A DNA stretch of 64,000 nucleotides from an uncultured Dehalococcoides sp. (lineage in GTDB: Bacteria > Chloroflexota > Dehalococcoidia > UBA2979), in the NCBI GenBank assembly GCA_964628985.1, contig CAZVNJ010000004.1:23628-87627 (forward strand). The letters are read 5' to 3'. The notes below the pieces were generated by a model that was not told the origin of the DNA, did no database searches, and was given only the letters and a program-made list of their open reading frames with translations. This document shows, piece after piece, positions 20,065 to 58,088 of the stretch. Made by a program: the position numbers and the translations under genes. How positions within the stretch are numbered: the stretch's first letter is position 1; every line of letters begins with the position of its first letter.

Positions 20065-20119
20065 CGGCCGGTCACGATCAGGATCGCGGGCCCGCGGGCC
20101 CGATGAAAGAGGCACGTCG

Positions 20120-24790: not shown

Positions 24791-24802
24791 GAACAAGTGT
24801 TC
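24791..24802 (+). promoter_or_regulatory. LexA/SOS box GAACaagtGTTC ahead of the phage-like packaging operon
   Basis: Perfect palindrome AGAACaagtGTTCT lying in the spacer of a TTGCGG-N18-TACTCT candidate promoter, 34 nt before ATG 24836. Confidence 0.6.
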
Positions 24803-24835
24803 TACTCTCCCTCTCCCAACGAGAGGGGGCAGGCA

Positions 24836-25287: not shown

Positions 25288-25598
25288 CCGACGGCAGCAC
25301 CTTCTACGACCGTGCACTCGACGCTGCGGACCGCGACGCGGTTGATGCCGCGCGTGGCGTCCACGGGATCGACGACGAAGTAGCGCTGCTGCGGGTCCAG
25401 GTACGGCGACTACTTGAGGCCGGGAACCCGGATCCGAAGGTGCTGCAGTCTGGTATCCGGTTGCTGATCCAGGCCCTCGCTGCCCAGCATCGCTTGAGCG
25501 GCGCACAGGCGGAGGGCGTCGAAAGCGCCGCCGCCGCCGCCATCGAGCAGTTCGCGGCGCTCATGCATCCTCTCGACACGACAGGCGATGCCGCGTGA
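25284..25598 (+). CDS. Hypothetical phage-module protein (104 aa)
   Basis: In-string coupled ORF. It is helical with a DEVALLRVQVRRLLE segment, and a small-terminase role cannot be shown. Confidence 0.45.
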   Translation: MTDGSTFYDRALDAADRDAVDAARGVHGIDDEVALLRVQVRRLLEAGNPDPKVLQSGIRLLIQALAAQHRLSGAQAEGVESAAAAAIEQFAALMHPLDTTGDAA

Positions 25599-25834
25599 AC
25601 CGCGCCCACCACAACACGGGGCGGCTCGCGGAGGCGCTCCGCGTGCTCTCGCGCGCCCGTCGTGCCGCGCCGATCGCCGCCCACGCGGCGCCCCCGACGC
25701 TGCTCGAGGTCGGCCTGCGTCTCGCCTCGCTTGAGCGGGAGGTCGCTGAGGTGCGCTCGCGCGTGAACGGTGTGCTGTTCGCCGTCGTCGCCTCCGTCCT
25801 CGCCCAACTCGCGACGAAGGTGGTGGTGGGATGA
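25595..25834 (+). CDS. Hypothetical protein with a C-terminal TM helix (79 aa)
   Basis: GTGA overlap upstream and ATGA overlap downstream, with C-terminal VNGVLFAVVASVLAQLATKVVVG. Confidence 0.45.
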   Translation: MNRAHHNTGRLAEALRVLSRARRAAPIAAHAAPPTLLEVGLRLASLEREVAEVRSRVNGVLFAVVASVLAQLATKVVVG

Positions 25835-27222: not shown

Positions 27223-27689
27223 CCGACATGACCGACATGACTGACAGGACAGACGTCGCGACGTACGAGGGCTCAGTCGACGTCCTCGACGGGGTCTCGG
27301 GTGGCGGGGGCTACAGCGGTGGGAGTGTCTTCGCGCTCCCGGTCATGACGGCGGCCGCCGTCTATGCACGCCGCCACGGCCAGGTGCGGAGTGACGCGCT
27401 CCCCGAGCACATCGAGTACCGCGACGAAGGCTGCGACCTGTTCGCGTCCTGCCTGACCTGCCCGCTTCCCCGCTGCCGGTACGACGAGCCGGGCGGCGTG
27501 CGCGCCATGCTGAACCGCGAGCGCGATCACCAGATCCGTGCGTTGCGCGAGGACCCCAGCCTCTCCGTGGACGACATCGCGGACCGCTTCGGTGTCTCAC
27601 GCCGCACCGTCTTCCGCGCGCTCGAGGGCCACGTGACCCGTTGTGGCGCCCGCCCCGAGGCTGGGCGCGAGGGGAAGAGGAGCGCCTGA
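27219..27689 (+). CDS. Cys-cluster plus helix-turn-helix protein (156 aa)
   Basis: CDLFASCLTCPLPRC cluster followed by LSVDDIADRFGVSRRTVFRALEG, an HTH. GTGA and TGATG overlaps link it to terminase and portal. Confidence 0.6.
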   Translation: MTDMTDMTDRTDVATYEGSVDVLDGVSGGGGYSGGSVFALPVMTAAAVYARRHGQVRSDALPEHIEYRDEGCDLFASCLTCPLPRCRYDEPGGVRAMLNRERDHQIRALREDPSLSVDDIADRFGVSRRTVFRALEGHVTRCGARPEAGREGKRSA

Positions 27690-37165: not shown

Positions 37166-38281
37166 CTACTCCTCGATTGCTTCGTCGGCGAAGAAGGAGG
37201 CCTGCGCGCTCCGGGTGGTCGCCGTGTGCGCGTCGATGCCGAGGTGCTCGTAGCCGAGGCGCGTCAGGATGCGTCCGCGCGGCGTGCGCTGGATGAAGCC
37301 GATCTTCAGGAGGTACGGCTCGTACACGTCCATGATCGTGTCGCCCTCCTCCGAGATCGCGGCGGCGAGGGTTTCGAGGCCGGCGGGGCCGCCTCCGAAG
37401 CGCTCGGCGAGCGCCGTCATCAGATCACGGTCCATCTGGTCCAGGCCGAGGTCGTCGATCTGCATGCGTCCGAGCGCGGCGGCGGCAACCTCGCCGGTGA
37501 TCACGCCGTCGGCGCGCACCTCAGCGTAGTCGCGCACGCGCCGCAGCAGGCGGTTGGCGACGCGCGCGGTGCCGCGTGAACGGCGGGCGATCCCCGCAAC
37601 GCCATCGGGCGTGATGCGGCAGGCGAGGACGTCCGCGGAGCGATTGATGATCTGCGTCAGCGCCGCTTCGTCGTAGAAGTCCATGCGGTACGCCGACCCG
37701 AAGCGGTCGCGCAGTGGCTGCGAAACCAGCGCGAAGCGCGTCGTCGCACCGACGAGCGTGAAGCGGTTGAGTTTCAGGCGCACGTCGCGCGCCTTCGGCC
37801 CCTTGCCCAGGATGATGTCGACGGAGAAGTCCTCCATCGCTGGATAGAGCACCTCCTCCACGGGCAGCGAGAGGCGGTGGATCTCGTCGATGAAGAGCAC
37901 GTCGCCCGGCTGGAGGCTGGTGAGCAGCGAGGCGAGGTCGCCGGCACGCTCGATGGCGGGGCCGCTGGTGATGCGGATGGAGACGCCCATCTCCGCCGCC
38001 ACGATCATGGCGAGCGTGGTTTTGCCGAGGCCGGGGGGCCCGTGAAAGAGGAGATGGTCGAGCGACTCGCCGCGCTGCTTGGCCGCCTCGATGCTGATGC
38101 GCAGGCTCTCCTTGATCCGCTCCTGCCCGAAGTACTGCTCCAGGCGGCGAGGCCGCAGGCTGGTCTCGATTGGTGCCTCGTCATCGGCGGCGACGGGCGA
38201 GAGCGGGCCGGGACGGGCGGCCTCGGGCGCGGGCGGCGTCGAGGGCTGCCGGGCAGGTCGAGGTGCGCGCGGCTCGGGCAT
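37166..38281 (-). CDS. ruvB: Holliday junction branch migration helicase RuvB
   Basis: [36 protein letters not shown] and GATTR motifs, with a ~35-aa Pro/Ala N-terminal extension. No ruvA is adjacent. Confidence 0.95.
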
Positions 38282-38303: not shown

Positions 38304-38315
38304 GAACGGACGTTC
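38304..38315 (-). promoter_or_regulatory. LexA/SOS box GAACggacGTTC upstream of ruvB
   Basis: Perfect palindrome CGAACggacGTTCG 23 nt upstream of the ruvB ATG. ruvB is a classical SOS gene, so this calibrates the motif. Confidence 0.7.
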
Positions 38316-38402: not shown

Positions 38403-38723
38403 ATGTTCGGCACCGTCGCGAAATTGCAGTTGAAGCCCGGCGCGGAAACGCTCTTGCTGGCATGGTCTCCGGCGCTCGCCGGGAATATCCGTGGCCATGT
38501 GTCCAGCACGATCTACCGCTCGACCGAGGATCCCCTGGTCATGTGGCTCTCCGTCGTCTTCGAGGACGAGGAGTCCTATCGCGCGAACGCCGCGAGCCCG
38601 GAGCAGCATCGTCGCTGGCAGCAGATGCGCTCCGTCCTCGAGTGTGACCCGGAGTGGCACGACGGCGTCGTGATGATGCACGGCACGCCCGGCAAGCGGT
38701 ACGACGCGCCGAAGGGGACATAG
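38403..38723 (+). CDS. Small ABM/Dabb-fold-like protein
   Basis: 106 aa with MFGTVAKLQLKPGAE..VFEDEESYRANAASPEQHRRWQ, divergent from ruvB. Confidence 0.45.
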   Translation: MFGTVAKLQLKPGAETLLLAWSPALAGNIRGHVSSTIYRSTEDPLVMWLSVVFEDEESYRANAASPEQHRRWQQMRSVLECDPEWHDGVVMMHGTPGKRYDAPKGT

Positions 38724-38740: not shown

Positions 38741-38953
38741 TCACCACACACCCACGACCATCGCGTCTTCGTGGTTGAGGCCGTCGAAGAGCGCGACAGC
38801 GACACGGCGACCGGGGACGAGTTCCGCGCTGGCGATGCCGCGCGAGACGGGGACGGCGTCGAGGGCGGTCGAGGCCGACTCGGCGAGCAGGATGCTCGCC
38901 GTGTAGGAGCCGGACGAGAACGCAAGCAGGGTCGCGCGCTGCACGACGAACAT
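38741..38953 (-). CDS. Hypothetical 70-aa protein, last gene of the phage-like structural string
   Basis: ATG 38953 is preceded by GGGGGGA, with alternative starts at 38971 and 38983. It begins 15-45 nt after the stop of the 660-aa gene. Confidence 0.4.
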   Translation of the reverse strand: MFVVQRATLLAFSSGSYTASILLAESASTALDAVPVSRGIASAELVPGRRVAVALFDGLNHEDAMVVGVW

Positions 38954-38997
38954 CGATGTCCCCCCAATCATGTCCAGCCGCAACCATCGAGGGCGGC

Positions 38998-40980
38998 TCA
39001 GGGCGCGCCGAGGCTCAGCGTCATCTCGTATCGGCCGCGCGGTGATCGCGCGTAGTCGAGGCGGACCGACAGCACGCGGAAGCGGCGCGCGTCCCAGCCC
39101 ATCGAGGCGTCGTTGACTTCGATCACGTCGCCCGGCTCCTGGCCGGGGTGCGGAGCCACCGTGATCCGCGCGATCGGGGCATCGAAGGCGCGGCGACGGA
39201 GCGTGGCAGCAGCGCGTGACTGCGCCTCGGCAGTGGTGGTGAGGGCGCGGTCGCTGAGGACGGCGACGGGGGCGCCCGCGCGGAGTGCGGATTCGTCCAC
39301 CGCCTCGGCGAACGCGCCGTCCCCGGAGGTGCGCGCCCAGCCGGCCTCGGGCGTCGCCTCGAATGCCTCGACGGAGCGCAGCGGGTGCGTGGTGCCGTAG
39401 GCGTAGGTCGAGGGCTCATCGGGCAGTGCTTCGCGCAGCGCGAGCGTGACGCCGGTCGCCAGCAGCATGTCGCCGCCACGGTCGAGGACGCGATCGATCG
39501 CGGCGCGGAGGCGGCTCCCCGGCGGCACGAGGAACGGTGCGGTGAGCGTGGTCGTGACGGCGCTCGCACCCGCGGTGCTCAGCAGGAAGCCGGCGTGGCG
39601 CACGAGTTCCTGCAGCAGGGCGGCCTGCGTCGTGGCGCCCGAGGGCCAGGTGATCGCACGCGGTGCGCGCCACTCGCCGAGGCGCGCGAGCGCCCCTTGT
39701 GCCTCCACCTCGACGACCGCGCGGCCGGCGTCGCGGCGACGGCGGATCGAGGTGACCCACCAGCGCCGGCCCTCGGCGCCCTCGTGCGTGCCGCCGAGAT
39801 CGAGGCCCGGCGAGACAGCGACCTCCGCGCCGAGCGCCAGTGATCGCGGGGCGACCGCGGGGGCATACGAGCCGTCGTCAACCAGGGTGAAGCTGAGGCG
39901 GTCGAGGTCGCCGGAGAGGGACTGTTCGAAGCGGAGCGCAAGGATGTCGTCGCTGACGTCGATCTCTGCGACGTTGATCGCGGCGTGCCAGACGCCGCGC
40001 GGCGACGCGAGGTAGGCGTGCCCGCCGGCGGCCGCGAGGCCGAGGCCGTAGGTGAGCGTCGAGTCGACGGCGGGGACTGGGTCGCGCCAGGCGTGGTCCT
40101 CGAAGGTCGCGTCCGCGACGGCGGAGGCGAAGTGCGAACGCGCGCCGCCCGCCACCCACTCGATGAAGACGGCGAGGGGCGCGCCGGCATCCGCGAGGCC
40201 GGTCGCGACGTAGGAGACGCCGGTGCCCGGCGAGGCGACGGCGACCGGCGCAAGCGGCGACCAGGCGCCGGGCGGGCCGCTGAGACCGGTGCCGAGCCGG
40301 GTGCTCCACACACCGGTCGCGCCGCCCGCGCTCAGGGTGCCGCTCACGATCACGCCGTAGTCCGGCACGTCGTACATCGCGATGCCGGTGACCGAGGCGA
40401 GGCCGAGCGAGGCGGCGGCCGGCGTCCCCCACGCACCGAGGCCGCTGCGACGGCTCGACTTCACCACGCCGCTCTCGGCCCAGACAACCGCGGCGGTGCC
40501 GTCGGCGCGGACGGCGCAGGAAACGGCCTGCACGGCCGCTCCCGCGGTCGCGACCGTCGAGGGTGAGCCGAAGGTCACGCCGGAGTCCGTGCTCTCGCGT
40601 ACCTCGATGGTGGTGGAGGAAGCAACGGTCGCCAGGAGGACGCGCGTGCCGGCGGCGGCTAGGCCGAGGCGTGGGGTCACCTCGGCGGTGCCCGCGCCTC
40701 CGAGGCTCGTCCATGCGCTGTAGGTGCTCGCCTCGGAGGGCGCGGCGACCCGCTGAAGCAGCAGTTCGCCCGTGACGCCATCGATGCGGGCGCGGAGCAG
40801 CGCGCCATCGCCGGCCACGGCAGCGGCGCACGGGCCGGCGGCCTCGGTGGTGCCGGTGTACCAGCGCGTCCAGCGCAGGCGCGGGACGCCGACGTCCCAG
40901 TCGCCCATCGTGACGCGCACGCTGGGGCGCTGCGGCATCGACTGCTGGGCGGCTTCGAGCGCGGCCGAGATCGCGAGCAT
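38998..40980 (-). CDS. 660-aa phage tail/host-recognition-like protein with an Asp-box (BNR) N-terminal half
   Basis: Start MLAISAALEAAQQ at 40980. ESTDSGVTFGS Asp-box and repeated beta-strand-like segments in the N-terminal half. The C-terminus ITVAPHPGQEPGDVIEVND..RFRVLSVRLDY..GRYEMTLSLG resembles phage tail proteins. The 950-aa ORF-track version is an artefactual extension. Confidence 0.55.
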   Translation of the reverse strand: MLAISAALEAAQQSMPQRPSVRVTMGDWDVGVPRLRWTRWYTGTTEAAGPCAAAVAGDGALLRARIDGVTGELLLQRVAAPSEASTYSAWTSLGGAGTAEVTPRLGLAAAGTRVLLATVASSTTIEVRESTDSGVTFGSPSTVATAGAAVQAVSCAVRADGTAAVVWAESGVVKSSRRSGLGAWGTPAAASLGLASVTGIAMYDVPDYGVIVSGTLSAGGATGVWSTRLGTGLSGPPGAWSPLAPVAVASPGTGVSYVATGLADAGAPLAVFIEWVAGGARSHFASAVADATFEDHAWRDPVPAVDSTLTYGLGLAAAGGHAYLASPRGVWHAAINVAEIDVSDDILALRFEQSLSGDLDRLSFTLVDDGSYAPAVAPRSLALGAEVAVSPGLDLGGTHEGAEGRRWWVTSIRRRRDAGRAVVEVEAQGALARLGEWRAPRAITWPSGATTQAALLQELVRHAGFLLSTAGASAVTTTLTAPFLVPPGSRLRAAIDRVLDRGGDMLLATGVTLALREALPDEPSTYAYGTTHPLRSVEAFEATPEAGWARTSGDGAFAEAVDESALRAGAPVAVLSDRALTTTAEAQSRAAATLRRRAFDAPIARITVAPHPGQEPGDVIEVNDASMGWDARRFRVLSVRLDYARSPRGRYEMTLSLGAP

Positions 40981-40985
40981 CGCCG

Positions 40986-41612
40986 TCAGCCCTCGATCGG
41001 TCGCGCGCCCGCGGGGGCGGGCGTGGCGGCGGTGTAGAGGCGGCGCGATCGGAGGCGGCGTTCGCGGCCGTGCTTTGCGAGGCCCTTCGCGAAGGCAGCG
41101 AGGCGGTCCTGGCCCCACGTATGGAAGTGCCGCCAGGTGTCGTCGCCGCCGGTGTTCAGTCGGTCGACGGCGTACGCCGACCACTCGATCGCGGCGTACG
41201 CCGCCGCCCCCGTCGCGACGAGGTCCTGCAGCCGCTCGGGGAGCGTCGTCCCGTCGTTTTCGAGGGTGTGGAGCGCGCCGTAGCGCACGACGACGTCGTC
41301 GCCGCTCGGCGGTGGGGACGCGGTCTCGACGGTGAGCGTGTCGCCCCAGATCGAGAAGGCGACGTAGGCAGGCGGGTACTGGCCGGCTGGCCATTCGACG
41401 GCCTCGATCGTGACGCGAGCGGCGAGGGGTGCGAGCGCGAGGTCGCGCGTGCCGGTGGAGACGAGGACGGCGGAGGCCTCCAGCGGCGCGGCGAGCGAGC
41501 ATTCGCGCACGGCGCGGTCGATGTGACGGTCGAGGGTGTCGTCGTCCCAGCGGTCGCCGGAGGGGTCGCGGAGGTCCTGGCGCACGCGTGCGCGCATGTC
41601 CGAGAGGTTCAT
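40986..41612 (-). CDS. Phage structural protein (putative head-tail adaptor, 208 aa)
   Basis: MNLSDMRARVRQDLRDPSGDRWDDDTLDRHIDRAVRE start resembles adaptor or connector proteins. The call rests mainly on its position between the capsid and tail-like genes. Confidence 0.4.
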   Translation of the reverse strand: MNLSDMRARVRQDLRDPSGDRWDDDTLDRHIDRAVRECSLAAPLEASAVLVSTGTRDLALAPLAARVTIEAVEWPAGQYPPAYVAFSIWGDTLTVETASPPPSGDDVVVRYGALHTLENDGTTLPERLQDLVATGAAAYAAIEWSAYAVDRLNTGGDDTWRHFHTWGQDRLAAFAKGLAKHGRERRLRSRRLYTAATPAPAGARPIEG

Positions 41613-41637
41613 CGCTGGCGCTCCCTTCCCTTCTTCC

Positions 41638-41792
41638 GTACCGCCGTCGCCTTCCGGCGACGAGCGGCCCATCCCCCTGCCACCCTCGGGGAAGGGGGTT
41701 ACAGAACTTGTGGATCACCCCACTCCCCCCGGCCCCCTCGCCCCTCGAGGGGCGAGGGGGAGTTTCGATCCGGAGAGCGTTGGTGCCTCCTC
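41638..41792 (+). repeat. Three-hairpin composite repeat, copy A
   Basis: GTACCGCC-GTCGCCttccGGCGAC..CCCATCCCCCTGCC..GGATCACCCCACTCCCCCCGGCCCCCTCGCCCCtcgaGGGGCGAGGGGGAG.. Confidence 0.85.
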
Positions 41793-41883
41793 GGCGTTCC
41801 TCGCCGTTCGCACTCCACCGCTTCCGCGGGCGGCTCTCGCTTGGCCTCAAACGTGATCACTCCGCTACCGCGCGTACCGCCGT

Positions 41884-42039
41884 CGCCTGCGGCGACGAGC
41901 AGCCATTCCCCTTCCCCCTCCCCCGAGGGGGGGAGATATAGAAGTTGGATCACCCCACTCCCCCCGGCCCCCTCGCCCCTCAAGGGGCGAGGGGGAGTCA
42001 GATCTCGGAGAGGGGCTGGTTGCCCCTCCGTGTCCCGCG
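41884..42039 (+). repeat. Three-hairpin composite repeat, copy B (direct tandem with A, 246-bp offset)
   Basis: GTACCGCC-GTCGCCtgcGGCGAC..CTCCCCCgagGGGGGAG..GGATCACCCCACTCCCCCCGGCCCCCTCGCCCCtcaaGGGGCGAGGGGGAG. Confidence 0.85.
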
Positions 42040-42058
42040 CCGTGGAGGGCGCGCTCGC

Positions 42059-42448
42059 TCAGCAGCAGGAGGCCCAGGCTGAGAGGGCGAGCGTGGGGGA
42101 GGTGCCGGCGAGAGCGACGACTTGGAGGTAGACGGTGGCGCCGCGTGCTTCGATGCGGAGGCGGTAGCGGCCGCTTTCCGTGTAGAAGCAGGAGTCGCCG
42201 CGGAACCAGGCGTCGGAGGTCGCGTCGTAGTAGAGCGGCGCGACTTCGACGAGTGGGTCCGTGCCGCCGAGGGTGATCGCGATGTCGAAGTCGACGTAGC
42301 GGTAGCCCTCGGAGGCGATGCCGAGGCCGGCGGAGGCGGGGTCGTCCTCGTCTGGCTCGGTCACGTCGACGCGGTGCGCGACGGGGGCGGTTTGCTCGAA
42401 GACGGCCGCCTTCGGCACGCCGTTGGCATCGATGCGCACGTCCGCCAT
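42059..42448 (-). CDS. Hypothetical phage-module protein (129 aa; possible head decoration or accessory)
   Basis: Starts 24 nt after the capsid gene stop and looks beta-rich. No family recognised. Confidence 0.5.
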   Translation of the reverse strand: MADVRIDANGVPKAAVFEQTAPVAHRVDVTEPDEDDPASAGLGIASEGYRYVDFDIAITLGGTDPLVEVAPLYYDATSDAWFRGDSCFYTESGRYRLRIEARGATVYLQVVALAGTSPTLALSAWASCC

Positions 42449-42472
42449 CGGAGTCTCCTTTCGCCGGGACCG

Positions 42473-43363
42473 CTACGGACGCACGCCGACGAGGCGCGAC
42501 AACTTCGACTCGTTGAAGAGTGCGAGGGCGACGTACCACTTCACGCGCACGCGCGTGGCGTCCTTCGACTCCAGCGCGCCGACGCGTTCGATAGTGAGCC
42601 CGCCCGGGCCGGTGAGGCCGACGAGGGCGCCCTCGCCGAACTGCACGGCGTAGATCGTGGAGCAGTCGTCGTTCGCGCCCTGCGTCTGGTCGTCCGCGAT
42701 GTGGTCGTCCACGCCGATCGGGATGCCGTTGTAGAACTGCACCATGCGGCCGAACTCGTCGCGGTCCTGCTCGACGATGCCGCTGCCCGTGGCGCGTCCG
42801 AGGGCGGTGAGTGCCCGCCGTGTGCGCCGCGACATCAGCAGGAGGTCCGGCTTGCCGCCGCGCACCGCGTCGATCGTCTCGTCGAGTTTCGCGAGAGTGA
42901 GCGCGGCGCCGTCGACGCCCATCTCGACCGTCTGCCCCGCGGTGCAGAGGCGGTCGATGCCCTCGAAGGCCTTGGCGTTCACGGAGGTGTCGCCGTTGAC
43001 GAAGGCGTCGTCGAACGCCTGCTGTACCGCCTTCGCCTTGAGCGCGACGACGGCGCTCTCCAGGTCCTGCACGTTGGAGCGCGTCTGCACCAGGTAGCGG
43101 TCGATGTCCGCGTCGCCGCCGAGAATCTTCAGCGTCGCCGTGACCTGGGTGAAGGTGGGCGTGCTCTCCGTCCAGTCGTCGCCGACGGCGAAGAAGGCCG
43201 CCGTGGCCGGCACGTTCTCCCGGTTGTAGGTGAGCCCGTTCCCGACGATCTCGATGAACGGCAGCCGCCCGAGGACGGCGGAATCCTGCACCACCGTCTC
43301 CACCACGCCTTCGAGCAGCACGTCATTGGAGAGCTTGGCGCCCTCGGCCAGCGTCAGAGCCAT
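42473..43363 (-). CDS. Phage major capsid protein (HK97-fold type, no delta domain)
   Basis: MALTLAEGAKLSNDVLLEGVVETVVQDSAVLGRLPF..GNGLTYNRE..ATLKILGGDADIDRYL..YAVQFGEGALVGL..VKWYVALALFNESKLSRLVGV. The pattern matches SPP1 gp13-like capsid proteins as I recall them. ATG 43363 follows GAGGGA. Confidence 0.7.
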   Translation of the reverse strand: MALTLAEGAKLSNDVLLEGVVETVVQDSAVLGRLPFIEIVGNGLTYNRENVPATAAFFAVGDDWTESTPTFTQVTATLKILGGDADIDRYLVQTRSNVQDLESAVVALKAKAVQQAFDDAFVNGDTSVNAKAFEGIDRLCTAGQTVEMGVDGAALTLAKLDETIDAVRGGKPDLLLMSRRTRRALTALGRATGSGIVEQDRDEFGRMVQFYNGIPIGVDDHIADDQTQGANDDCSTIYAVQFGEGALVGLTGPGGLTIERVGALESKDATRVRVKWYVALALFNESKLSRLVGVRP

Positions 43364-43531
43364 CGTGTCCCTCGCCCTTCTCCCACAGGCGCCCACGCGC
43401 CGGGGAGGAGTGACGGTAGAGAGAGGCGGGGGCAGGTCAGAGGGGGAAGTGGCGCACGGAGTTGTCAGGTTCGAGTGCCACGAGGCGCTGGACCGTTGGT
43501 CCTACTATTTCCGTGCAGGGGGTACTAGACA

Positions 43532-45298
43532 ATGAATCAGACGTCTGAACGGGCGCGGAATGTCGCTGAGTCGATTGATGCAGCGGTTCAGCAGTACTGC
43601 GAAGAGCGTGAGGCCTTTGACACCAGCACGAAAGGCGATGGCTTTGCGATCTGGTGTCTGACCGACGTCTTCGGGTTCGAACGAGATGACGCCATCGATG
43701 CCCTTACGGGTGCCAAGGGCGATCACTCCATGGATGCGATTGCTGACGACGGCAACCGGCTGATCGTGCTCCAAGCGAAGTATCACTCCCACGACTGGGC
43801 GGAAGTCACGAAGTTTCAGACGGACGCCCGGAGCGTAGGTGCGGGTACCGCGAGGCTGCCGCAGGCCCTCCGAGCACCCGCGACAAAAATTCGCGCTCGG
43901 CAGGAGAGCGGCCTGCCAATCGAGTACTTCTACATCACGAATGACCGGTTCACCGGCGATGACGTTGTGAAGATCTCTAACTTGGGGGACGAGCCGGAGC
44001 TTAGCGTCCTCGATCTGGACGGGATTTGCGATCTGCTGTTTGAGCGCGAATCTCAGCGCCCGGTGAATGTTCCCGCGCAGCCTGTGGTCCTGCATCCTCG
44101 GATCTCACCGCTTCAGTTCGGTGATTCGTTGGTCTTCCCCGTACCCCTCAGGGAGTTCAGCCGGTTCGTGTCCGAGGATGGCAAGGATCGTTGGCTCTTC
44201 AATAGCAATGTCCGTCAGTACCTCTCGCGATCGAAGATTAACGAAGGCATTCGCGAGACCGCGAGAAACTCTCCATCGAGTTTCTGGCGATACAACAACG
44301 GCGTCACGATCGTGGTAGACGAATTCGAAGTCCGAAAGAACAGTCTGGCACTCACCAAACCTCAAATCGTAAACGGCTGTCAGACTTCCCTGGCGCTCGT
44401 CAAGGTCATGGCAGAGATGACCCCTTCAGAGCAAGAGAAGGTCGATGGCGATCTGCTCGTCCGCGTCATCCGGGAGCCTCGCGATGAGGAGCGAGAGCGG
44501 ATCACCCAGTTCACGAACAAGCAGAATGCGGTCAAGGGCAAGGACTTCTACGCCCTGCAGGACTTCCAGAAGCAACTGAAAACCCGCATCGGTCGTCTCG
44601 GGTACTTCTATGAGATCCAGACAGGTAGTTACGACATGCTCTCCCGGTCGGCCAAAGAGGGTCTGCGCGGGGAGTCACGTTTCAGCCACCTCCAGTGGAA
44701 GCGCAAGGATTACCGTGTACCAGCGATTGAGGCTGCGAAGTGTCACGCTGCAGCGTTTCGTTCCAAGGTAGCGGCCTGCTACGCGAACCCCGCTGACTTC
44801 ACTCCGAACGGCGATCTATACGACACAGTGTTTCCGGCGGACTTGCCGCTCGAACCGGAGATGTTCCTGCTTCCCTTCTTGCTGATGAAGCACGCTGAGT
44901 CAGCGTTGGGCTATGGAGCATCTAAAGGAGCAGCGTGGCGGCGGAGAGGGCGTTACGTCTTTGTCTACTCAGCCTTCAAGACGTTGAGGGAGGCGCTGAT
45001 TCAGGCGGATCGTGCGACGGTCGGCGTGGATCTTGGCAACGCCACCGTTCGGGAAGTGTTCGCCGACGAGAGCATCACCCACCTGTTGGTGGGCGTGACC
45101 GAGAAGGTCATGGAGAGCTTCTTTACGGACACTCCCATTCAGAAGTTGATCAATAGCGATATTTTCGCGTTCCTGAAGCGGACTATCGAAGGTGAGGATG
45201 CGACGACCATCCTCGACAGCAAGATTCGGTACCAGCTAACAGACAACGACGACGGTCGGACTCTGGTTGCTGCCCTTAGGGCTGCGTTGCCCGCCTAG
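43532..45298 (+). CDS. AIPR-family abortive-infection protein
   Basis: 588 aa with an N-terminal nuclease-like DAIADDGNRLIVLQAKY block and the central FWRYNNGVTIVVDEF..IVNGCQTS signature of the AIPR family. G+C is visibly lower than the flanks. Confidence 0.75.
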   Translation: MNQTSERARNVAESIDAAVQQYCEEREAFDTSTKGDGFAIWCLTDVFGFERDDAIDALTGAKGDHSMDAIADDGNRLIVLQAKYHSHDWAEVTKFQTDARSVGAGTARLPQALRAPATKIRARQESGLPIEYFYITNDRFTGDDVVKISNLGDEPELSVLDLDGICDLLFERESQRPVNVPAQPVVLHPRISPLQFGDSLVFPVPLREFSRFVSEDGKDRWLFNSNVRQYLSRSKINEGIRETARNSPSSFWRYNNGVTIVVDEFEVRKNSLALTKPQIVNGCQTSLALVKVMAEMTPSEQEKVDGDLLVRVIREPRDEERERITQFTNKQNAVKGKDFYALQDFQKQLKTRIGRLGYFYEIQTGSYDMLSRSAKEGLRGESRFSHLQWKRKDYRVPAIEAAKCHAAAFRSKVAACYANPADFTPNGDLYDTVFPADLPLEPEMFLLPFLLMKHAESALGYGASKGAAWRRRGRYVFVYSAFKTLREALIQADRATVGVDLGNATVREVFADESITHLLVGVTEKVMESFFTDTPIQKLINSDIFAFLKRTIEGEDATTILDSKIRYQLTDNDDGRTLVAALRAALPA

Positions 45299-45301
45299 AC
45301 C

Positions 45302-45697
45302 CTACAGTTGGAACCAGTCAGTGACGCGCTCCTCATACTCTGCACGGGCGCTGGCAGGTGTGTGAACGTGCGTTGCGGGTACGTACAGGGCACCGTTGAT
45401 CGCGAGGCCCTCGACCTCGCGCACGTACTCGACGCGGATCGCTGATTCCTCCCCAGGCGTCCAGTAGAAGGGCGCGCCGCCTGGATCGACGAGGTTCTCG
45501 GGGCCGGCATAGCCGCGGTTGACCTGCGCAAGCAGGTCGAGTGCTGCCTCAGCCTCTGCCTGACTGGCATGGCGAACGTAGATCTCCTCGTTGTTCTCCA
45601 GATAGCCGTGGGATTCGGTGAGCCATCCCAGCCAGAGTCGTTCGCGGCGAGCGACCACAGTCGTCTCGGTTTCGTGCGGGTGAGTGTCGTTTGCCAC
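45302..45697 (-). CDS. Hypothetical 131-aa protein
   Basis: GTG 45697 is preceded by GAGGAGG. It is convergent with AIPR, with stops 4 nt apart. No family recognised. Confidence 0.5.
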   Translation of the reverse strand: MANDTHPHETETTVVARRERLWLGWLTESHGYLENNEEIYVRHASQAEAEAALDLLAQVNRGYAGPENLVDPGGAPFYWTPGEESAIRVEYVREVEGLAINGALYVPATHVHTPASARAEYEERVTDWFQL

Positions 45698-45800
45698 GGC
45701 GGGCCTCCTCGATGCGTGCGAAAAGGTATGCGGTCCACCCTCCCCTTGCCCGGTCGCCCTATCCTCATCTTCTGTAAGGCAACCATCGAGGAGTCCCCAC

Positions 45801-46220
45801 ATGGCCACTGTGACCGCCGACTACCAGGACCGGAAGCGCATCGTGTTCACGGCGCGCGGGCGGGCGACGACGAATGTGCGCGAGATGGTGGCGGACGGGC
45901 CGGCGGGGTATTCGTCGACGGAGTTGCTGCTGATCGCCGTGGGGAACTGCTCGCTCGGCGCGTTCCTGAACCATGACCTGCTGAAGGACGCGCAGGTGAC
46001 GGCGTGCCGGTCGACGCTGGAGGCGTCGATGGTGCCGAACCCGACGCGCATCGAGCAGATCTTCAACCGTATCGAGCTCGAGGTGACGGACCCAGCGTTG
46101 CTCGCGCAGCACGAGGTGCTGGAGGCGGCGTCCTGCGAGTGCCCGCTGTGCAACACGCTGGGCGACAAGATCATCACGACGCTGACGATCTCGCTGGCGA
46201 AGCAGGCGGTCGCCGTCTAG
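45801..46220 (+). CDS. OsmC family peroxiredoxin-like protein
   Basis: STELLLIAVGNCSLGAF and ASCECPLCNTL, the two conserved Cys regions. ATG 45801 follows GAGGAG. Confidence 0.75.
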   Translation: MATVTADYQDRKRIVFTARGRATTNVREMVADGPAGYSSTELLLIAVGNCSLGAFLNHDLLKDAQVTACRSTLEASMVPNPTRIEQIFNRIELEVTDPALLAQHEVLEAASCECPLCNTLGDKIITTLTISLAKQAVAV

Positions 46221-46251
46221 CGCTCACGCGGGCACTCGCGCTTCCCGAGGC

Positions 46252-46923
46252 TCAGATCATCCGCTCCTGCAGGCCCGCCGCGATCTTCTGACGCGCGGTG
46301 AGGTGGCCGCGCGCGCTCGTTTCCCGCGCGGGTGCGCCGGCGGGGAAGCCCCGCTCCGTGGGGCGGCGCGCTTCCACTCGCTCTCGCACACGCGCGACCA
46401 TGGTGCGGGCCGCGGCGATCGAGGCGTCGACGTCCTCGATGCTGTCGCCGCGGACGAGTTCCGGCGGCAGGTCGGGCTCGTTGGCGAGGACGGCTTCGCG
46501 GTAGCGGGCGACGGCGGCGCAGGCGAGGCCGCGCTGGCGTTCGAGTTCCTGCTGCGCGGCGGCGAGTGCGGCCTGGAGTCCGCGCGCGCGTTCGACCTCG
46601 ACCTGCCGTTCGGCCTCCCGCTCTTCGTCCCGCGCATCGCGGCCCGCGAGACCCTCGGCGGCGAGGGCTTCGATCTCGGCTTGGACGTCGTCGGGCAGGG
46701 GTTCGCCGTCGGGGTCGACCTCGAAGCCGTCGAGGTCGCCGAGGTGTGCGGCCGGGTCGAGGGCGTCGAAGTCGTCCTCGGGGTCGTCGGCGTCGAGCGG
46801 GTCGCCGAGGTCGTCGTCCGGGTCGTCATCGATGTCGGTGGCGGGCAGGTCGTCGTCGGGGATGGGGTCGAGGGCGTCCTCGAATGCTTCGCGTTCGAGG
46901 ACGTCGGTGAGTATGCGAGCCAT
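46252..46923 (-). CDS. Acidic coiled-coil protein, putative capsid scaffolding protein
   Basis: 223 aa with an Asp/Glu-rich N-terminal half, a helical REAERQVEVERARGLQAALAAAQQELERQ segment and a C-terminal TARQKIAAGL. AGGAGG lies 6 nt before ATG 46923. The call rests on composition and position only. Confidence 0.4.
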   Translation of the reverse strand: MARILTDVLEREAFEDALDPIPDDDLPATDIDDDPDDDLGDPLDADDPEDDFDALDPAAHLGDLDGFEVDPDGEPLPDDVQAEIEALAAEGLAGRDARDEEREAERQVEVERARGLQAALAAAQQELERQRGLACAAVARYREAVLANEPDLPPELVRGDSIEDVDASIAAARTMVARVRERVEARRPTERGFPAGAPARETSARGHLTARQKIAAGLQERMI

Positions 46924-46964
46924 GTGAGCCTCCTCTCGCCCCCGCCGAGGGGCTTGAACGTATA

Positions 46965-46976
46965 GAACACCCGTTC
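46965..46976 (-). promoter_or_regulatory. LexA/SOS box GAACacccGTTC ahead of the scaffold-like gene
   Basis: Perfect 16-bp palindrome TAGAACacccGTTCTA about 40 nt upstream of ATG 46923. Confidence 0.6.
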
Positions 46977-47010
46977 TATCGAAGCTGTCGAGGGTGAGGT
47001 GACGCTCGAC

Positions 47011-47781: not shown

Positions 47782-47980
47782 GTACCGCCTTCGCGTGGCG
47801 AAGGGCGGCCCATCCCCCTGCCCCCATACCGCACCCCACGCGGTCCAGGGCTACCGCGCGGGGGCCCCGCGCAGAGGGGGAAGGGGGTTGAAGAACGTGA
47901 GATCACCCCCACTCCCCCCAACCTCCTCGCCCCTCACGGGGCAAGGGGGAGCCCAGACCCCGGAGGGTGCCGGGAACCTC
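47782..47980 (+). repeat. Three-hairpin composite repeat, copy C
   Basis: GTACCGCC-TTCGCgtgGCGAA..CCCATCCCCCTGCC..(insertion)..GGGGGAAGGGGG..GATCACCCCCACTCCCCCC..CCTCGCCCCtcacGGGGCAAGGGGGAG. Confidence 0.8.
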
Positions 47981-48683: not shown

Positions 48684-49250
48684 TACCGCCGCTGGTACGA
48701 CCACAAGTGGGGCAAAGAACGGTCGAAGCAGGAGTGGGTCAAAGTGCACGCCGTGACCGGCGCCACGACGAACATTGTCACCGCGATCCACGCGACGGCT
48801 GGCGAGTCCGCCGACTCGCCACAACTCCCGGTGCTGTTCGGACGCACGGCTGAGACATTCGACGTTCGCGAGGTCTCGGCTGACCGGGCGTACTCGTCGC
48901 GGAGCAACCTCCACGCGATCCAGAACATCGGCGCGATGCCGTTCATCCCCTTCAAGAAGGGCAGCACCGGGGCCGTGACGCACCACAAGTTCGACGGCTT
49001 GTGGTCGCGCATGCGGCACTACTACCAGTTCCGCCGCGAAGACTTCCTCGGCCACTACCACAAGCGATCGAATGTCGAGACGACCTTCAGCATGGTCAAG
49101 GCGAAGTTCGGCGGTTCCGTCCGGGCGAAGACGCCCACCGCCCAGGTGAACGAGGCGCTGTTGAAGTTCCTCTGCCACAACATCGTGGTGCTCATCCAGA
49201 GCATCTATGAGTTGGACATCGAGCCTGCATTCTGGGGTGAGCATCACTAG
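48684..49250 (+). pseudogene. IS5-family DDE transposase, C-terminal fragment only
   Basis: YRRWYDHKWGKERSKQEWVKVHAVTGATTNIVTA..ADRAYSSRSNL..HYHKRSNVETTFSMVKAKFG. The expected ~150 N-terminal residues are absent in all frames upstream. Confidence 0.7.
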
Positions 49251-49783
49251 CGCCTCGACCGCGTGAATGTCTCTATTCGTCTTTCGAATCTCCGAATCGG
49301 GCCGACCATGTCGAGGACAATCCACGCCTCGATGCGGCTCGGCCATGCCTCGGAATCGTTGACGTTGCCGGAGGCGTGGCAATCGACTTCGATGGCGGAA
49401 GACATCGGCGGCAATTCGATGTCCGTGATCGCTACCTCGTCGATCAGTAATGGAACCTCCTGCAATGTCTTCCGCCATAACAGAAGCCGCCTGCGCTTGA
49501 GTGCGACGCTGCCCCCGATGACTCGCTCCTTTCGGTCGGTGCGATGGTTCACCAACCGCAGCGTGAACCGCATGTACACCCAAGGACGCATCCCAGGCCC
49601 TTCGTCAGGTAGCGGCGGCTCAATCGCAAGTTGCAGCATCGGGGCGGCGTCGTATTGGCCACTTCCCGGATGACGCCACCCCAAAACGGTCATCTCCATT
49701 CCGCCCTCCATGAGTCTTCGCCAGACCCACCGGAGGATGGGGACGGCTTTCGCCGCCGCCCTGAGCAACTCACCACCTGACAT
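49247..49783 (-). CDS. Hypothetical 178-aa protein
   Basis: Long ORF in a lower-G+C patch, convergent with the IS fragment with a 4-nt overlap. No family recognised. Confidence 0.45.
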   Translation of the reverse strand: MSGGELLRAAAKAVPILRWVWRRLMEGGMEMTVLGWRHPGSGQYDAAPMLQLAIEPPLPDEGPGMRPWVYMRFTLRLVNHRTDRKERVIGGSVALKRRRLLLWRKTLQEVPLLIDEVAITDIELPPMSSAIEVDCHASGNVNDSEAWPSRIEAWIVLDMVGPIRRFERRIETFTRSRR

Positions 49784-49873
49784 ACGTCACCCCCCTTCGG
49801 GGGCATTGTGCTGCCTGCCTCAAATCTCATGAGACTGCCCCAAAAGTCGGGGGCGGGGGTGGGTTCTGAGGCA

Positions 49874-49902
49874 AGGCCCTTCCCCTCGGGGGAAGGGGGC
49901 AC
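49874..49902 (+). repeat. Composite repeat, hairpin-2-only copy F
   Basis: GCCCTTCCCCtcgGGGGAAGGGGGC. Confidence 0.5.
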
Positions 49903-50289
49903 ACGTGGCGACACGGCCAAGCCGCCGGCGGCACCGTCGGCGCGGACCTCGGCAGGCTCCTCCGGGATAGTTCGATGGCGAGGCCCTCGCGCTCGCTGAC
50001 GCAATGGGCGTCCTGGTCCGACGCGCTCCCACCCCGCTCCTGAACCTGACAGTTCTCCTACGCGCCCACCCGGGCGGCTTCGCCATTGCTATCCTCCCGG
50101 CCGGGGTGGACTCACGTACCAGTAACGGGATGGTCGCCGTCGCAGTCGCACTGCACCTCGACACCCGACCAGACTGGCCCCACTCCACTACGCCGAGGGC
50201 GACCCGCTCTTCGACCCCCGTCGAGCCGAGCGCGCCCGCCAGTTCGCCATCGCCTTCATCGGTGGCGCCGCCGTCCGGAGGAAGACCGC

Positions 50290-50925
50290 GTGACACCAGA
50301 CGACGAACCCTCGACCAGCCCGGACGTCCAGACGCCGGCCCCGAAGAAACAGTCGTTCCTCGCCGCCGCATGGGGCGGGTTCTGGGGGACGCGCTGGTTC
50401 GTGAAGTACCCGATCATGGTCGCCGCGGTCCTCGTCGTCCTCAGTGCGTTGGGCAGCACGGAGACAACCACCGAACCCGCTGCAGCCACTCAGGAACCAA
50501 CCGTCGCTGCCGCCTCCGCGAGCGGCGCAACGTCCGGGCCGGCGACGTCTGTCGCCTCGGCCGGCAGCGCAACGGCCGCGCCGACCAAGGCAACCGCTAC
50601 CCCCGGATCGAACCTGACGGCTTCTCAGCAGTCCGCGGTCCGGTCGGCGAACGCCTACCTCCGGATCTCGGGGTTCTCACGGCAGGGCCTGATCGATCAG
50701 CTCTCGTCACCGTTCGGGGACAAGTACCCGGTCGCGGATGCCACGGTTGCGGTAGACAGCCTCAACGTCGATTGGAACGCGCAGGCCGTGAAGTCGGCGA
50801 ACGCCTACCTCCGGATCTCGGGCTTCTCGTGCCAGGGGCTGATCGACCAGCTCTCGTCGCAGTACGGGGACAAGTACACCGTCCCGCAGGCCAGGCACGG
50901 GGCAACTCAGGTCGGCTTGTGCTGA
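50290..50925 (+). CDS. Membrane-anchored protein with two Ltp (host cell surface-exposed lipoprotein) domains
   Basis: GTG 50290 follows GGAGGA. One TM segment (YPIMVAAVLVVLSAL), a Thr/Ala linker, then AVRSANAYLRISGFSRQGLIDQLSSPFGDKY and AVKSANAYLRISGFSCQGLIDQLSSQYGDKY. Confidence 0.7.
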   Translation: MTPDDEPSTSPDVQTPAPKKQSFLAAAWGGFWGTRWFVKYPIMVAAVLVVLSALGSTETTTEPAAATQEPTVAAASASGATSGPATSVASAGSATAAPTKATATPGSNLTASQQSAVRSANAYLRISGFSRQGLIDQLSSPFGDKYPVADATVAVDSLNVDWNAQAVKSANAYLRISGFSCQGLIDQLSSQYGDKYTVPQARHGATQVGLC

Positions 50926-50987
50926 CACCAGCCAGGTTCGCCATCGCCTTCGATTAACGCGCCGCCATCTGCTCGCAGGAGGATCAC

Positions 50988-51891: not shown

Positions 51892-52076
51892 TGGCCTTCC
51901 GATTCCGACGCTCTGTCAAGATCGCGCCCGGGCTGCGCCTCAACATCAACAAGGGCAGCCCGAGCCTCCGCGCCAGTGGACGCGGTGCCGGTTACACCGT
52001 CTCCTCAACGGTTTGCGCACGAAGGCCGTCGGCATCCCCGGCTCAGGCCTCTCTTCCCCTCGGGGGAAGGGGTTAG
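51891..52076 (+). pseudogene. DUF4236-like protein, apparently truncated where repeat copy D begins
   Basis: MAFRFRRSVKIAPGLRLNINKGSPSLRASGRGAGYTVS matches the DUF4236 N-terminus. The frame then runs into repeat D and stops after 61 aa. Confidence 0.5.
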
Positions 52077-57206: not shown

Positions 57207-57268
57207 GGGGGGTGAGAGTGTCGAAGGGCGGTTGACGAGTTGACAGAACGGGGTTAGCGTTCCGAACA

Positions 57269-57280
57269 GAACATGTGTGC
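57269..57280 (+). promoter_or_regulatory. Imperfect LexA-type box GAACatgtGTGC upstream of lexA
   Basis: One mismatch from GAAC-N4-GTTC. It sits in a patch with further half-sites (GTTCCGAACAGAAC), about 180 nt upstream of the lexA ATG. Confidence 0.35.
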
Positions 57281-57455
57281 CGCACATCTGTATCGGCCAG
57301 CGCGTGGCCCGTGCGATGCGGCGGACATGGGCCTCCGCCTTGAGGCGGGGGCAGGTTGGGCGTGCGGGTGGGGGTAAGGGGACGCGCGGACGCCGGCAAA
57401 GCCGGGCGCCCACCGTGCTGCCGCACGGAGTCGCGACGTGAGAGAGGCGTATGCC

Positions 57456-58088
57456 ATGTCGGACGGATTGTCGGAGAAGCAGCAGGACATCTACCGCTTC
57501 CTGGAGCGGTTCATCGCCGAGCACGACTATCCGCCCAGCATCCGGGACATCCAGCAGGGGTGCGGTATCTCATCCACCAGCGTGGTGGACTACAACCTGA
57601 AGCGCTTGGAGGAGAAGGGGCTGATCCGGCGGGACCGCGAGGTCTCACGGGCGATCGAGCTGCTGAACGGGCAGGGCGAACGCCGACGGCGCACCGTGCA
57701 GGTGCCGCTGCTGGGCCCGATCGCGGCGGGCATCCCGATCCCCACGCACCCGGACAGCGTCGCGCCGCTGGACATCATCGAACTGACCGAGGAGCAGGTG
57801 CGCGGCAAAGCCAACCTCTACGCGCTGCGCGTCCAGGGCACCTCGATGATCGACGCGCTGATCAATGACGGGGACATCGTGGTCCTCGAGCCACGCCAGG
57901 CGGCGGATCCGGGCGAGGTCGTGGCCGCATGGATCGTGGACCGGGGGGAGACGACGCTCAAGAAGTACTTCCCCGAGGGGCGGAAGGTCCGGCTGCAACC
58001 GATGAACGCGACGATGGCCCCCATTATGGAGGACGCGTCGAACGTGCAGGTGCAGGGGCGGCTCGTCGCCACCATCCGCTCCTTCTAA
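57456..58088 (+). CDS. lexA: LexA repressor
   Basis: LSEKQQDIYRFLERFIAEHDYPPSIRDIQ winged-helix N-terminus. AAG cleavage site (GPIAAGIPI) and GTSMIDALINDGDIVV..TLKKY Ser/Lys protease motifs. Confidence 0.95.
   Translation: MSDGLSEKQQDIYRFLERFIAEHDYPPSIRDIQQGCGISSTSVVDYNLKRLEEKGLIRRDREVSRAIELLNGQGERRRRTVQVPLLGPIAAGIPIPTHPDSVAPLDIIELTEEQVRGKANLYALRVQGTSMIDALINDGDIVVLEPRQAADPGEVVAAWIVDRGETTLKKYFPEGRKVRLQPMNATMAPIMEDASNVQVQGRLVATIRSF

Follow-up and report, generated by a model that had tools for sequence, protein, structure and literature searches.

Phage-derived particle genes with predicted LexA control and a proposed tail without a tube in the chromosomes of Chloroflexota

The window analysed here is a 64,000-nucleotide stretch of DNA (positions 23,628 to 87,627 of contig CAZVNJ010000004.1, assembly GCA_964628985.1) from an uncultured Dehalococcoides sp., and it carries two blocks of phage-type morphogenesis genes among ordinary host genes. 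With a probability of about 0.6, these blocks are best explained as a domesticated, phage-derived and probably LexA-repressed particle system of the Chloroflexota that resembles a gene transfer agent (GTA) and ends in a tail without a tube. The gene set is a chromosomally inherited system across the phylum and not a feature of one genome, and it is very probable that selection maintains it as a set of particle genes. That the particles transfer DNA between cells may also be true, at less than even odds. In full the set comprises a small membrane protein, small open reading frames (ORFs) including p104, the large terminase TerL, a four-cysteine helix-turn-helix (Cys4-HTH) protein, the portal, the scaffold, the major capsid protein (MCP), sometimes an accessory head protein, the adaptor, a fusion of beta-propeller and hub, and an OB-fold protein.

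The gene map is derived from GC-frame analysis and ORF calls, the products being assigned by Pfam and PHROG scans and by AlphaFold models compared with Foldseek. The window has a G+C content of about 68%, and the two blocks are convergent and about 10 kb apart. The head-to-tail block consists of the following genes, given in the order of transcription:

46252-46923, minus strand: scaffold-like protein of 223 amino acids (aa), with an acidic N-terminus, a coiled coil and a conserved C-terminus
42473-43363, minus strand: HK97-fold MCP of 296 aa (phrog_212, 3.5e-72; PF05065)
42059-42448, minus strand: p129, an accessory protein of 129 aa and head-decoration candidate
40986-41612, minus strand: SU10-type head-to-tail adaptor of 208 aa (PF24175 SU10_adaptor, 9.5e-8; 33.2 bits against a cutoff of 27)
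38998-40980, minus strand: tail hub of 660 aa, with an N-terminal beta-propeller and a C-terminal hub of gp27/gp44 type
38741-38953, minus strand: p70, an OB-fold protein of 70 aa with a five-stranded OB barrel

An earlier reading of the stretch from its letters and ORFs (the sequence-only reading) had named the scaffold-like, HK97-type capsid and adaptor-like genes, and the Pfam and PHROG matches bear these identities out. The scaffold is assigned from a weak match to the head scaffolding family phrog_1793 (E 0.007), from its position ahead of the capsid gene, directly 5' of which it lies in most relatives, and from its acidic coiled-coil build with a conserved C-terminus (YR..L..P.LP.ELV.G...VPAGAP...EKI). 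The adaptor is kept in more than 100 loci. p129 occurs at its position in about one quarter of the related loci and looks like an accessory head protein; it has no family match in Pfam or PHROG and no match in the PDB.

The 660-aa product had been called BNR/tail-like, a description that holds and that the structure prediction refines. Its AlphaFold model (pLDDT 91.6) is divided into an N-terminal half that matches lectin and neuraminidase beta-propellers and a C-terminal part of about 340 aa that matches baseplate hubs with Foldseek E values of 1e-16 to 1e-13, among them Mu gp44 (1wru, 3.7e-15), the hubs of extracellular contractile injection systems including AFP and PVC, T4 gp27, VgrG and a baseplate chain of phage 80alpha. 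A search of the BFVD viral structures with the same protein returned matches to the hub domain only and no full-length analogue. The model of p70 (pLDDT 89) has as its top Foldseek match the Mu baseplate chain 9ki1_V, with P2 gpV (3qr8) also listed and generic OB folds scoring alike; at the sequence level there are weak matches to capsid decoration proteins. Since the p70 gene always lies directly 3' of the hub gene in relatives, p70 is a candidate for a spike base or plug. Profile searches of the hub, p129 and p70 against the PDB gave nothing significant, and the hub and p70 were resolved only by structure prediction.

The packaging genes lie in a second operon on the opposite strand:

24836-25129, plus strand: hydrophobic protein of 97 aa, the first gene behind the box at 24789-24804
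25126-25287, plus strand: ORF of 53 aa, ATGA-coupled to the 97-aa gene
25284-25598, plus strand: p104, 104 aa, small-terminase candidate by position only
25595-25834, plus strand: p79, 79 aa, with a hydrophobic C-terminus
25831-27222, plus strand: TerL, 463 aa (five PHROG TerL families, best 8.7e-12)
27228-27689, plus strand: Cys4-HTH protein (C-x6-C-x2-C-x4-C), between TerL and portal
27689-29227, plus strand: portal of SPP1 gp6 type (PF05133, 2.2e-14; phrog_64, 8.4e-23)

Start and stop codons overlap at five of the six junctions, including that of the Cys4-HTH and portal genes (TGATG), and a gap of 5 nt separates TerL from the Cys4-HTH gene. TerL has no Pfam match and is identified by the PHROG families together with the conservation of its motifs: in 22 sequences that share 40-81% identity, the Walker A motif RQxGK, the nuclease residues D264, D338 and D427/D428 and the Walker B residue E130 are invariant, and D129 of the Walker B motif is at least 90% conserved. 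p104, which has no informative family match, is kept near TerL on its upstream side in at least ten loci, p79 being placed between the two in the window. The 97-aa protein is a possible holin, judged by position and hydrophobic composition with transmembrane segments assigned by eye; it is 40-79% identical in loci L161, L162, L165 and L166, and in L016, L068 and L071 an unrelated small hydrophobic, membrane-like protein takes its place.

The Cys4-HTH protein is conserved in 18 loci and has a weak match to the late transcriptional activators of phrog_836 (2.9e-4), which makes it a candidate regulator or DNA-recognition protein and, speculatively, a possible bridge to the capsid-tail operon. Close relatives conserve it better than TerL (in L161 up to 93% versus 81% identity). 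The last 110 or so residues of the portal ORF (28800-29227) are of low complexity and unlike the C-termini of the related portals, which are about 430-470 aa long; this tail may be read-on in GC-rich sequence or the result of a frameshift. ARAGORN reports a 91-nt tRNA-Pro(CGG) at 28406-28496 on the minus strand, inside the portal ORF, which is probably a false positive; its location within the portal ORF and its length led us to reject it as an att site.

The combination of TerL, portal, adaptor and hub in one conserved set rules out an encapsulin nanocompartment, a cargo-enzyme shell of HK97 fold that lacks packaging machinery. As the sequence-only reading had observed, the block has neither tail tube, tape measure, sheath, protease nor lysin, and neither these nor an integrase were found by Pfam and PHROG among the window ORFs scanned, a set that leaves out some small ORFs. 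Capsids that form around a separate scaffolding protein ordinarily do without a prohead protease; what is unusual is a hub-type protein that has no tube or tape-measure genes beside it. An adaptor is present, as in podovirus-type tails, and more than 100 clusters have neither tube, sheath nor tape measure, but the distal protein has the hub fold of long-tailed phages and not a known nozzle fold. The sequence-only reading had weighed a minimal short-tailed particle, a head-only remnant and dependence on genes elsewhere; the evidence favours the first in combination with the last: the TerL and portal genes and four or five small ones are found some 10 kb off, preceded by a similar box.

The set is widely distributed. 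The MCP has more than 5000 homologues, of which the top 120 share 72-92% identity; most of these 120 come from unnamed sources, the named sources are all Dehalococcoidia or Chloroflexota, and many of the sequences lie on megabase-size contigs. A scan of one genome per species gave at least 565 confirmed stretches, and because this number may count several stretches per locus the safe statement is that the gene occurs in hundreds of species. The best 80 of these at least 565 stretches are 67-94% identical and are all titled Chloroflexota bar one 'Bacterium HR23'; many are on megabase-size chromosomes, and they include Tepidiforma, Ca. Amarobacter and a record titled Thermoflexus. The nearest MCP of a cultured phage is 40% identical. 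In IMG/VR at least 566 confirmed matches are flagged as viral, the 80 loci retained all lying on contigs of at most 27 kb, and beyond the capsid gene these loci mostly have the same order, with a variable 1-3 kb between the capsid and adaptor genes. In a lower-GC clade a gene of about 115 aa (family f50, '...AFAIVGDP.D..TWKLPHH...') is located 3' of the adaptor gene (L047, L068 and about 30 IMG/VR loci); it is not present in the window and has no Pfam match.

By tblastn synteny the order rimI, scaffold-MCP-(p129)-adaptor-hub-p70, ruvB recurs in many species. In six loci (L016, L041, L050, L054, L068 and L071) p104, TerL and portal adjoin this block directly upstream on the same strand to form a contiguous cluster, an arrangement that was therefore probably also the ancestral one. 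The cluster of L016 occupies 4408-15175, about 10.8 kb, between acyl-CoA dehydrogenase genes on one side and MoaC/MoaA/Ham1/FBPase on the other. The split layout of the window, with the same ABC transporters and ruvB, is common to L163 and L165, whose TerL proteins are 67-70% identical, so the split is old; L164 shares the portal-ABC part. In Tepidiforma a lone MCP gene, about 72% identical, lies between a SulP-like transporter (read from sequence) and a sensor gene, with TerL 2.5-3 kb away. More generally in the Tepidiformales (L022, L024 and L025 from Tepidiforma; L023, L029 and L051) the capsid gene has only host genes around it and the rest of the set is found elsewhere. Wherever the set is spread out in this way, one headful would be too small to carry all of its genes. 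A conventional prophage is rejected, as only about 10.8 kb of morphogenesis genes are present, the flanks are metabolic and housekeeping genes and G+C at third codon positions (GC3) equals that of the host; the larger prophage that inspection of the flanks might have revealed, a possibility that the sequence-only reading had raised against its own view, gave way to ordinary host genes in the flanks covered by the window and in those of L016.

The mode of evolution is that of a functional gene set. None of 160 MCP copies contains a stop codon over the aligned region. Against relatives at 78-82% MCP identity the non-synonymous divergence (dN) is 0.13-0.19 for the MCP, 0.11-0.21 for ruvB, 0.23-0.50 for rimI/RidA and 0.46-0.64 for the hub, and since absolute dN/dS ratios are uninformative at this distance they were taken from 59 close pairs. 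The median dN/dS in these pairs is 0.16 for capsid, 0.19 for adaptor, 0.28 for hub, 0.23 for p70, 0.23 for p129 and 0.15 for portal, alongside 0.25 for rimI and 0.08 for ruvB among the host genes. Pairwise distances of MCP and RuvB are correlated (r = 0.91; none of 2000 Mantel permutations as high) and have nearly the same mean (0.223 and 0.215), and in GC3 (0.82-0.92) the cluster genes are on a par with host genes. The rimI/ruvB position, this correlation and median ratios of 0.15-0.28 are what vertical inheritance under purifying selection, as in GTAs, would leave, with the linked ruvB and not a species tree as the reference.

That the set is an inert prophage remnant, intact here by chance, is scarcely credible in the light of these data. 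Most phage functions are indeed missing, an inserted island and repeats resembling repetitive extragenic palindromes (REP-like repeats) interrupt the set, and the MCP promoter has lost its operator box, all of which would suit a remnant. Against this stand the intact MCP at all 160 loci, the low median ratios, an MCP dN equal to that of ruvB, the conserved catalytic residues of TerL and the operator and promoter conserved on two separate operons, and a recent sweep of one mobile sequence is excluded by 20-30% protein divergence that parallels ruvB. The sequence-only reading had argued from the intact ORFs against simple decay and had named neutral evolution in relatives as the outcome that would speak against it; purifying selection is seen instead.

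The same observations bear on a phage satellite akin to the capsid-forming phage-inducible chromosomal islands (cf-PICIs), which would build its own heads, use a helper's tails, lysis and induction signals and integrate at a specific site beside ruvB. Capsid, portal, terminase and connector genes without conventional tail and lysis genes, the recurrence of the same chromosomal site and the flagging of fragments as viral by the IMG/VR tools would all agree with such an element. It is nevertheless very unlikely, as the set supplies the distal tail proteins (hub and OB) itself, diverges in step with ruvB and at an equal rate, has the GC3 of the host, and in several lineages is broken up or spread among host genes, so that it could not excise in one piece. 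The integrase and the replication or regulatory module that characterise satellites are also lacking: no integrase, replication, primase or repressor genes were found in or beside the contiguous copies, and none for integration, replication or repression in or beside the cluster in the window and in the contiguous L016, and the set is split over 10 kb here and scattered in Tepidiforma. Resident structural genes without replication or integration genes of their own, as found in the window and in L016, are typical of a GTA. Host-like GC3 and divergence together with the lack of mobility genes thus point to a domesticated element inherited with the chromosome rather than to a prophage, a remnant or a satellite.

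The two blocks are further connected by their promoters, for which the following features are relevant:

46963-46978, unstranded: LexA-type operator (TAGAAC-N4-GTTCTA) in the scaffold gene promoter, between -35-like and -10-like hexamers
24789-24804, unstranded: second LexA-type operator, CAGAACAAGTGTTCTA, of the packaging operon, 31 nt ahead of the first ATG
38304-38315, unstranded: LexA-type box of ruvB, 22 nt 5' of the ruvB ATG
37166-38281, minus strand: ruvB
57438-58088, plus strand: lexA (PF01726 and PF00717)

The scaffold-side box, TAGAACACCCGTTCTA, is the sole TAGAAC-N4-GTTCTA of the window and was seen in none of 100 shuffles. It had been described as a perfect 16-bp palindrome, which is not the case: it is a 6-4-6 inverted repeat whose ACCC spacer is asymmetric. 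The remainder of that description is accurate, as the box lies 39 nt from the ATG of the scaffold-like gene (46923), GAGGAGG precedes this start, and the 12-nt core GAACACCCGTTC is identical to that of a box at 1714. Exact GAAC-N4-GTTC cores occur five times in the window (1714, 1745, 24791, 38304 and 46965) against 0.63 expected. The boxes at 1714 and 1745 sit 35-70 nt 5' of a 60-aa ORF (1497-1679, minus strand) with two CxxC pairs, which may be a small SOS-regulated zinc-ribbon protein. A near-box, CAGAACATGTGTGC, with one core mismatch lies at 57266-57280, 5' of lexA and beside AGAACGGGGTTAGCGTTCC (57220-57440), and is probably the autoregulatory site of lexA.

The boxes are conserved in relatives. 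An exact core is found 5' of the scaffold or MCP gene in 22 of the 76 genome loci with usable upstream sequence, and the 23 boxes in 39 kb of upstream regions compare with 23 in the other 1.08 Mb, so that the box is enriched 27-fold there (Poisson P 3e-25). When up to one mismatch is allowed, the 14-nt AGAAC-N4-GTTCT is present 5' of scaffold or MCP genes in 44 of 82 close loci as opposed to 15 of 410 control regions. The packaging operon carries its box in all four relatives with usable upstream sequence, and the promoter layout is alike. Alignment of 29 non-redundant boxed promoters yields the consensus tGaCA-N8-CTTGaC-N5-AGAAC-N4-GTTCTAcT.T, in which the box occupies the spacer between the -35 and -10 elements and overlaps the -10 element. 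An operator in this position is classically one of repression. The layout came only from this alignment, a simple sigma-70 scan of 38.6-47.2 kb having returned no promoter. The extra conserved tGaCA about 8 nt 5' of the -35-like hexamer is found in boxed promoters of many lineages and lies here at approximately 47000-47010 and 24760-24775; it may be an activator site.

It is likely that LexA controls the particle genes in this lineage, a prediction from motif and promoter layout. The core of the cluster boxes equals that of the Bacillus subtilis LexA motif, CGAAC-N4-GTTCG (PMC3091678). The same core lies 5' of ruvB in 17 of 19 loci, an internal control for the motif as a marker of SOS genes in these genomes, and lexA itself is present. 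As in LexA operators of the Gram-positive/Chloroflexi type, the inverted repeat overlaps the promoter, is conserved in orthologous promoters and is present on the canonical SOS gene ruvB. The LexA of Dehalococcoides reportedly binds the CGAAC-N4-GTTCG motif too, and AGAAC arms are found in accepted Gram-positive LexA boxes. The sequence-only reading had spoken of host-type regulation, and LexA-type operators in the promoters of both operons, conserved in their placement, agree with this.

The inverted repeat could instead be bound by another regulator, either the Cys4-HTH protein or a phage-type repressor, in which case the link to DNA damage would be spurious. The cluster boxes share extended arms (tAGAAC..GTTCTAy) that differ from those of the ruvB boxes (CGAAC..GTTCG), a conserved TGaCA element lies 5' of the -35 hexamer, and an HTH protein is encoded in the cluster itself. 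This explanation is quite unlikely, given the Bacillus-type core, its presence on ruvB next to a resident lexA and the AGAAC arms of accepted boxes elsewhere.

In the window the scaffold-side box fronts the scaffold gene only, with the capsid gene beyond a 2.9-kb, mostly opposite-strand island and transcribed from a promoter of its own. The claim that an SOS box fronts the whole head/tail half is thus correct for the scaffold gene, but not for the capsid-to-tail operon, whose promoter is box-less here. In the window genome and its closest relative L001 this promoter keeps the -35-like and TACCGT elements, and the box between them has degenerated, so that here the scaffold gene and the packaging operon are the only boxed units. 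The island contains the following:

43532-45298, plus strand: AbiU/AIPR abortive-infection gene (PF10592, 4e-37; PADLOC AbiU, 1.3e-45)
45302-45808, minus strand: ORF of 168 aa with a coding-type GC frame pattern
45801-46220, plus strand: OsmC-like gene (PF02566), part of the inserted island and not of the particle system

The AIPR gene has a G+C content of 0.60 against about 0.70 in its neighbourhood and a 93% identical copy in L001, the 168-aa ORF has no PADLOC match, and the OsmC-like gene is found only in the close relatives L003, L005, L006, L008 and L009. The island (43532-46220) is a lineage-specific insertion between the scaffold and capsid genes, and as close relatives hold different cargo there the site appears to be a small hotspot of variable genes. 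The sequence-only reading had taken the island as a sign of some disruption; the insertion is real, but it is a lineage-specific arrival of AbiU/AIPR, OsmC-like and unknown ORFs. A further interruption is found in the 446-nt gap between p129 and the adaptor gene, where two REP-like repeats of about 110 nt with a perfect GC-rich hairpin, CCCCCTCGCCCCTYGAGGGGCGAGGGGG, lie at 41640-41995. Related hairpins occur at 47923-47947 and 52048-52072, and such hairpins could be terminators or mRNA stabilisers within the operon.

Between the two blocks the translations show an epimerase, two ABC transporters, a short-chain dehydrogenase/reductase, PspC, a thioesterase, a reductase-like gene, RidA and ruvB, and one further gene adjoins p70:

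38403-38723, plus strand: ABM gene

A 936-aa ORF (19985-22795, plus strand) consists almost entirely of Pro/Gly-rich repeats (PPPPGG, GGQPG), lies in DNA of 75% G+C and follows a putative lipoprotein gene. A DDE transposase (PF01609; 48573-49247, plus strand) is located about 0.9 kb past rimI, and the ORFs around it (49250-50954) have no family matches.

It is proposed that LexA would occupy the AGAAC-N4-GTTCT operator in the spacer of a TTGACA-like/TAnnnT promoter, where it overlaps the -10 element. DNA damage would lead to cleavage of LexA and thereby switch on the packaging operon and the scaffold gene, and relatives with an intact box would at the same time derepress their entire head-tail operon. 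The procapsid would then assemble under the direction of the scaffold without a protease, and TerL would pump DNA in through the portal. A dodecameric adaptor ring would be closed directly by a trimeric hub and the OB plug, to give a very short tube-less tail that would probably attach to cells by the propeller domains of the hub. Hubs of the gp27/gp44-type fold are pseudo-hexameric in solved structures. Release may proceed via the small membrane protein, the possible holin, and the outcome would resemble a GTA or PBSX.

Real particles of this kind need not serve gene transfer. They might be SOS-induced killers like PBSX or the phibacins, or a device of defence and altruistic suicide, and the SOS-type control does parallel that of PBSX and the tailocins, the hub/OB puncturing module would be the envelope-damaging part, and an AbiU defence gene is inserted within the cluster. 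This alternative is unlikely, as selection preserves the portal and a TerL whose ATPase and nuclease motifs are intact, which argues that packaging matters; killing is not known to need a filled head. Killing and gene transfer are inseparable from sequence alone. Returning to the GTA-like system, a more specific version is offered tentatively: an independently domesticated GTA, ancestral to a large part of the Chloroflexota (Dehalococcoidia, Tepidiformia and relatives), switched directly by the SOS response and equipped with a minimal propeller/hub-OB tail.

Several points weigh against the interpretation as a LexA-repressed, GTA-like particle system. LexA binding is predicted from the motif alone, and we infer it, like particle assembly, DNA packaging, release and delivery to other cells, from the genes. 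The box is missing in more distant, lower-GC clusters (0 of 66 loci), and the flanks of the cluster and ruvB boxes differ. In the window the island separates scaffold from capsid, the REP-like repeats interrupt the p129-adaptor interval and the MCP box is lost, so that co-regulation of the tail block here is a proposal only. The set yielded no lysin, no receptor-binding fibre and no small terminase that could be recognised, and since the set is dispersed in some lineages tube and tape-measure genes could lie elsewhere in the genome. To our knowledge there is no solved precedent for a hub docked straight onto an adaptor without a tube. Most of the genomes compared are metagenome-assembled. The absolute dN/dS ratios are inflated, because a GC3 of about 0.9 compresses dS, and in two Tepidiforma pairs TerL gives 0.32 and 0.76, so that its constraint may be relaxed in the Tepidiformales. 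Finally, ruvB is physically linked to the cluster, and the co-divergence test is therefore also compatible with transfer of the whole region.

Among known systems the set is most like a GTA or PBSX, and it shows the genomic features of a GTA, whose defining functions are the random packaging of DNA and its transfer. With the GTA of Rhodobacter capsulatus (RcGTA) and those of this type in other Alphaproteobacteria, whose co-evolution has been covered elsewhere (PMC10883770), it shares head and tail genes that descend from phages and come with no integrase, replication or repressor genes, chromosomal inheritance, purifying selection and co-divergence with the host, as well as genes that may be split over several loci; host regulators control RcGTA and would control the Chloroflexota set too. 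It differs in its independent origin in another phylum, with an MCP about 40% identical to any cultured-phage MCP, and in lacking genes for a tail tube, a tape measure, a terminator and head spikes, so that its tail would consist of adaptor, hub and OB protein. LexA influences RcGTA, but there control runs via CtrA/GafA, whereas here a LexA-type operator lies directly in the structural promoters, both operons carrying one, with lexA present and the MCP promoter box missing in the window. PBSX is likewise chromosomal and non-propagating, is induced by DNA damage, as is predicted for the Chloroflexota set, and makes particles that package host DNA. PBSX has, however, retained a complete contractile tail, the lysis genes and a repressor of its own (Xre) and is found in few species, whereas the Chloroflexota set has no tube, sheath or lysin, carries a host LexA-type box and occurs in hundreds of species.

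The cf-PICIs also have a small set of head, portal, terminase and connector genes without a normal tail, but they are mobile, with integrase, replication and regulatory modules and helper tails, none of which the Chloroflexota set has, and it encodes distal tail proteins of its own. The adaptor belongs to the same family (PF24175) as that of phage SU10 (Kuravirus), which joins a hexameric nozzle and fibres, whereas here a hub follows the adaptor. The hub fold (Foldseek E about 1e-15), an OB domain resembling the N-terminal part of the central spike and the hub-then-spike gene order of Mu are shared with Mu gp44/gp45 and T4 gp27/gp5. The hubs of Mu and T4, in contrast, cap a tail tube inside a baseplate; the hub of the Chloroflexota set is fused to a beta-propeller, and its spike protein has only 70 aa and no beta-helix.

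Known independent domestications of phages into GTAs amount to a handful, mostly in Proteobacteria, and no prior description of this element in Chloroflexota was found in the literature searched. What would be new is the independent domestication in a new phylum, the direct LexA-type operator and the proposed tube-less adaptor-hub tail. The particle would be very small (encoded by about 10.8 kb), self-assembling and DNA-packaging, with an unusual tube-less tail of interest for structural study, and the direct LexA-type operator offers a simple and testable handle for induction. The system would also explain the short 'viral' Chloroflexota fragments flagged by virus-detection pipelines. Chloroflexota are abundant in the subsurface, the sea, soil and wastewater, and few genetic tools are available for them. 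If the proposed interpretation is correct, such particles would point to an important pathway by which this phylum exchanges DNA, or by which its damaged cells undergo altruistic lysis.

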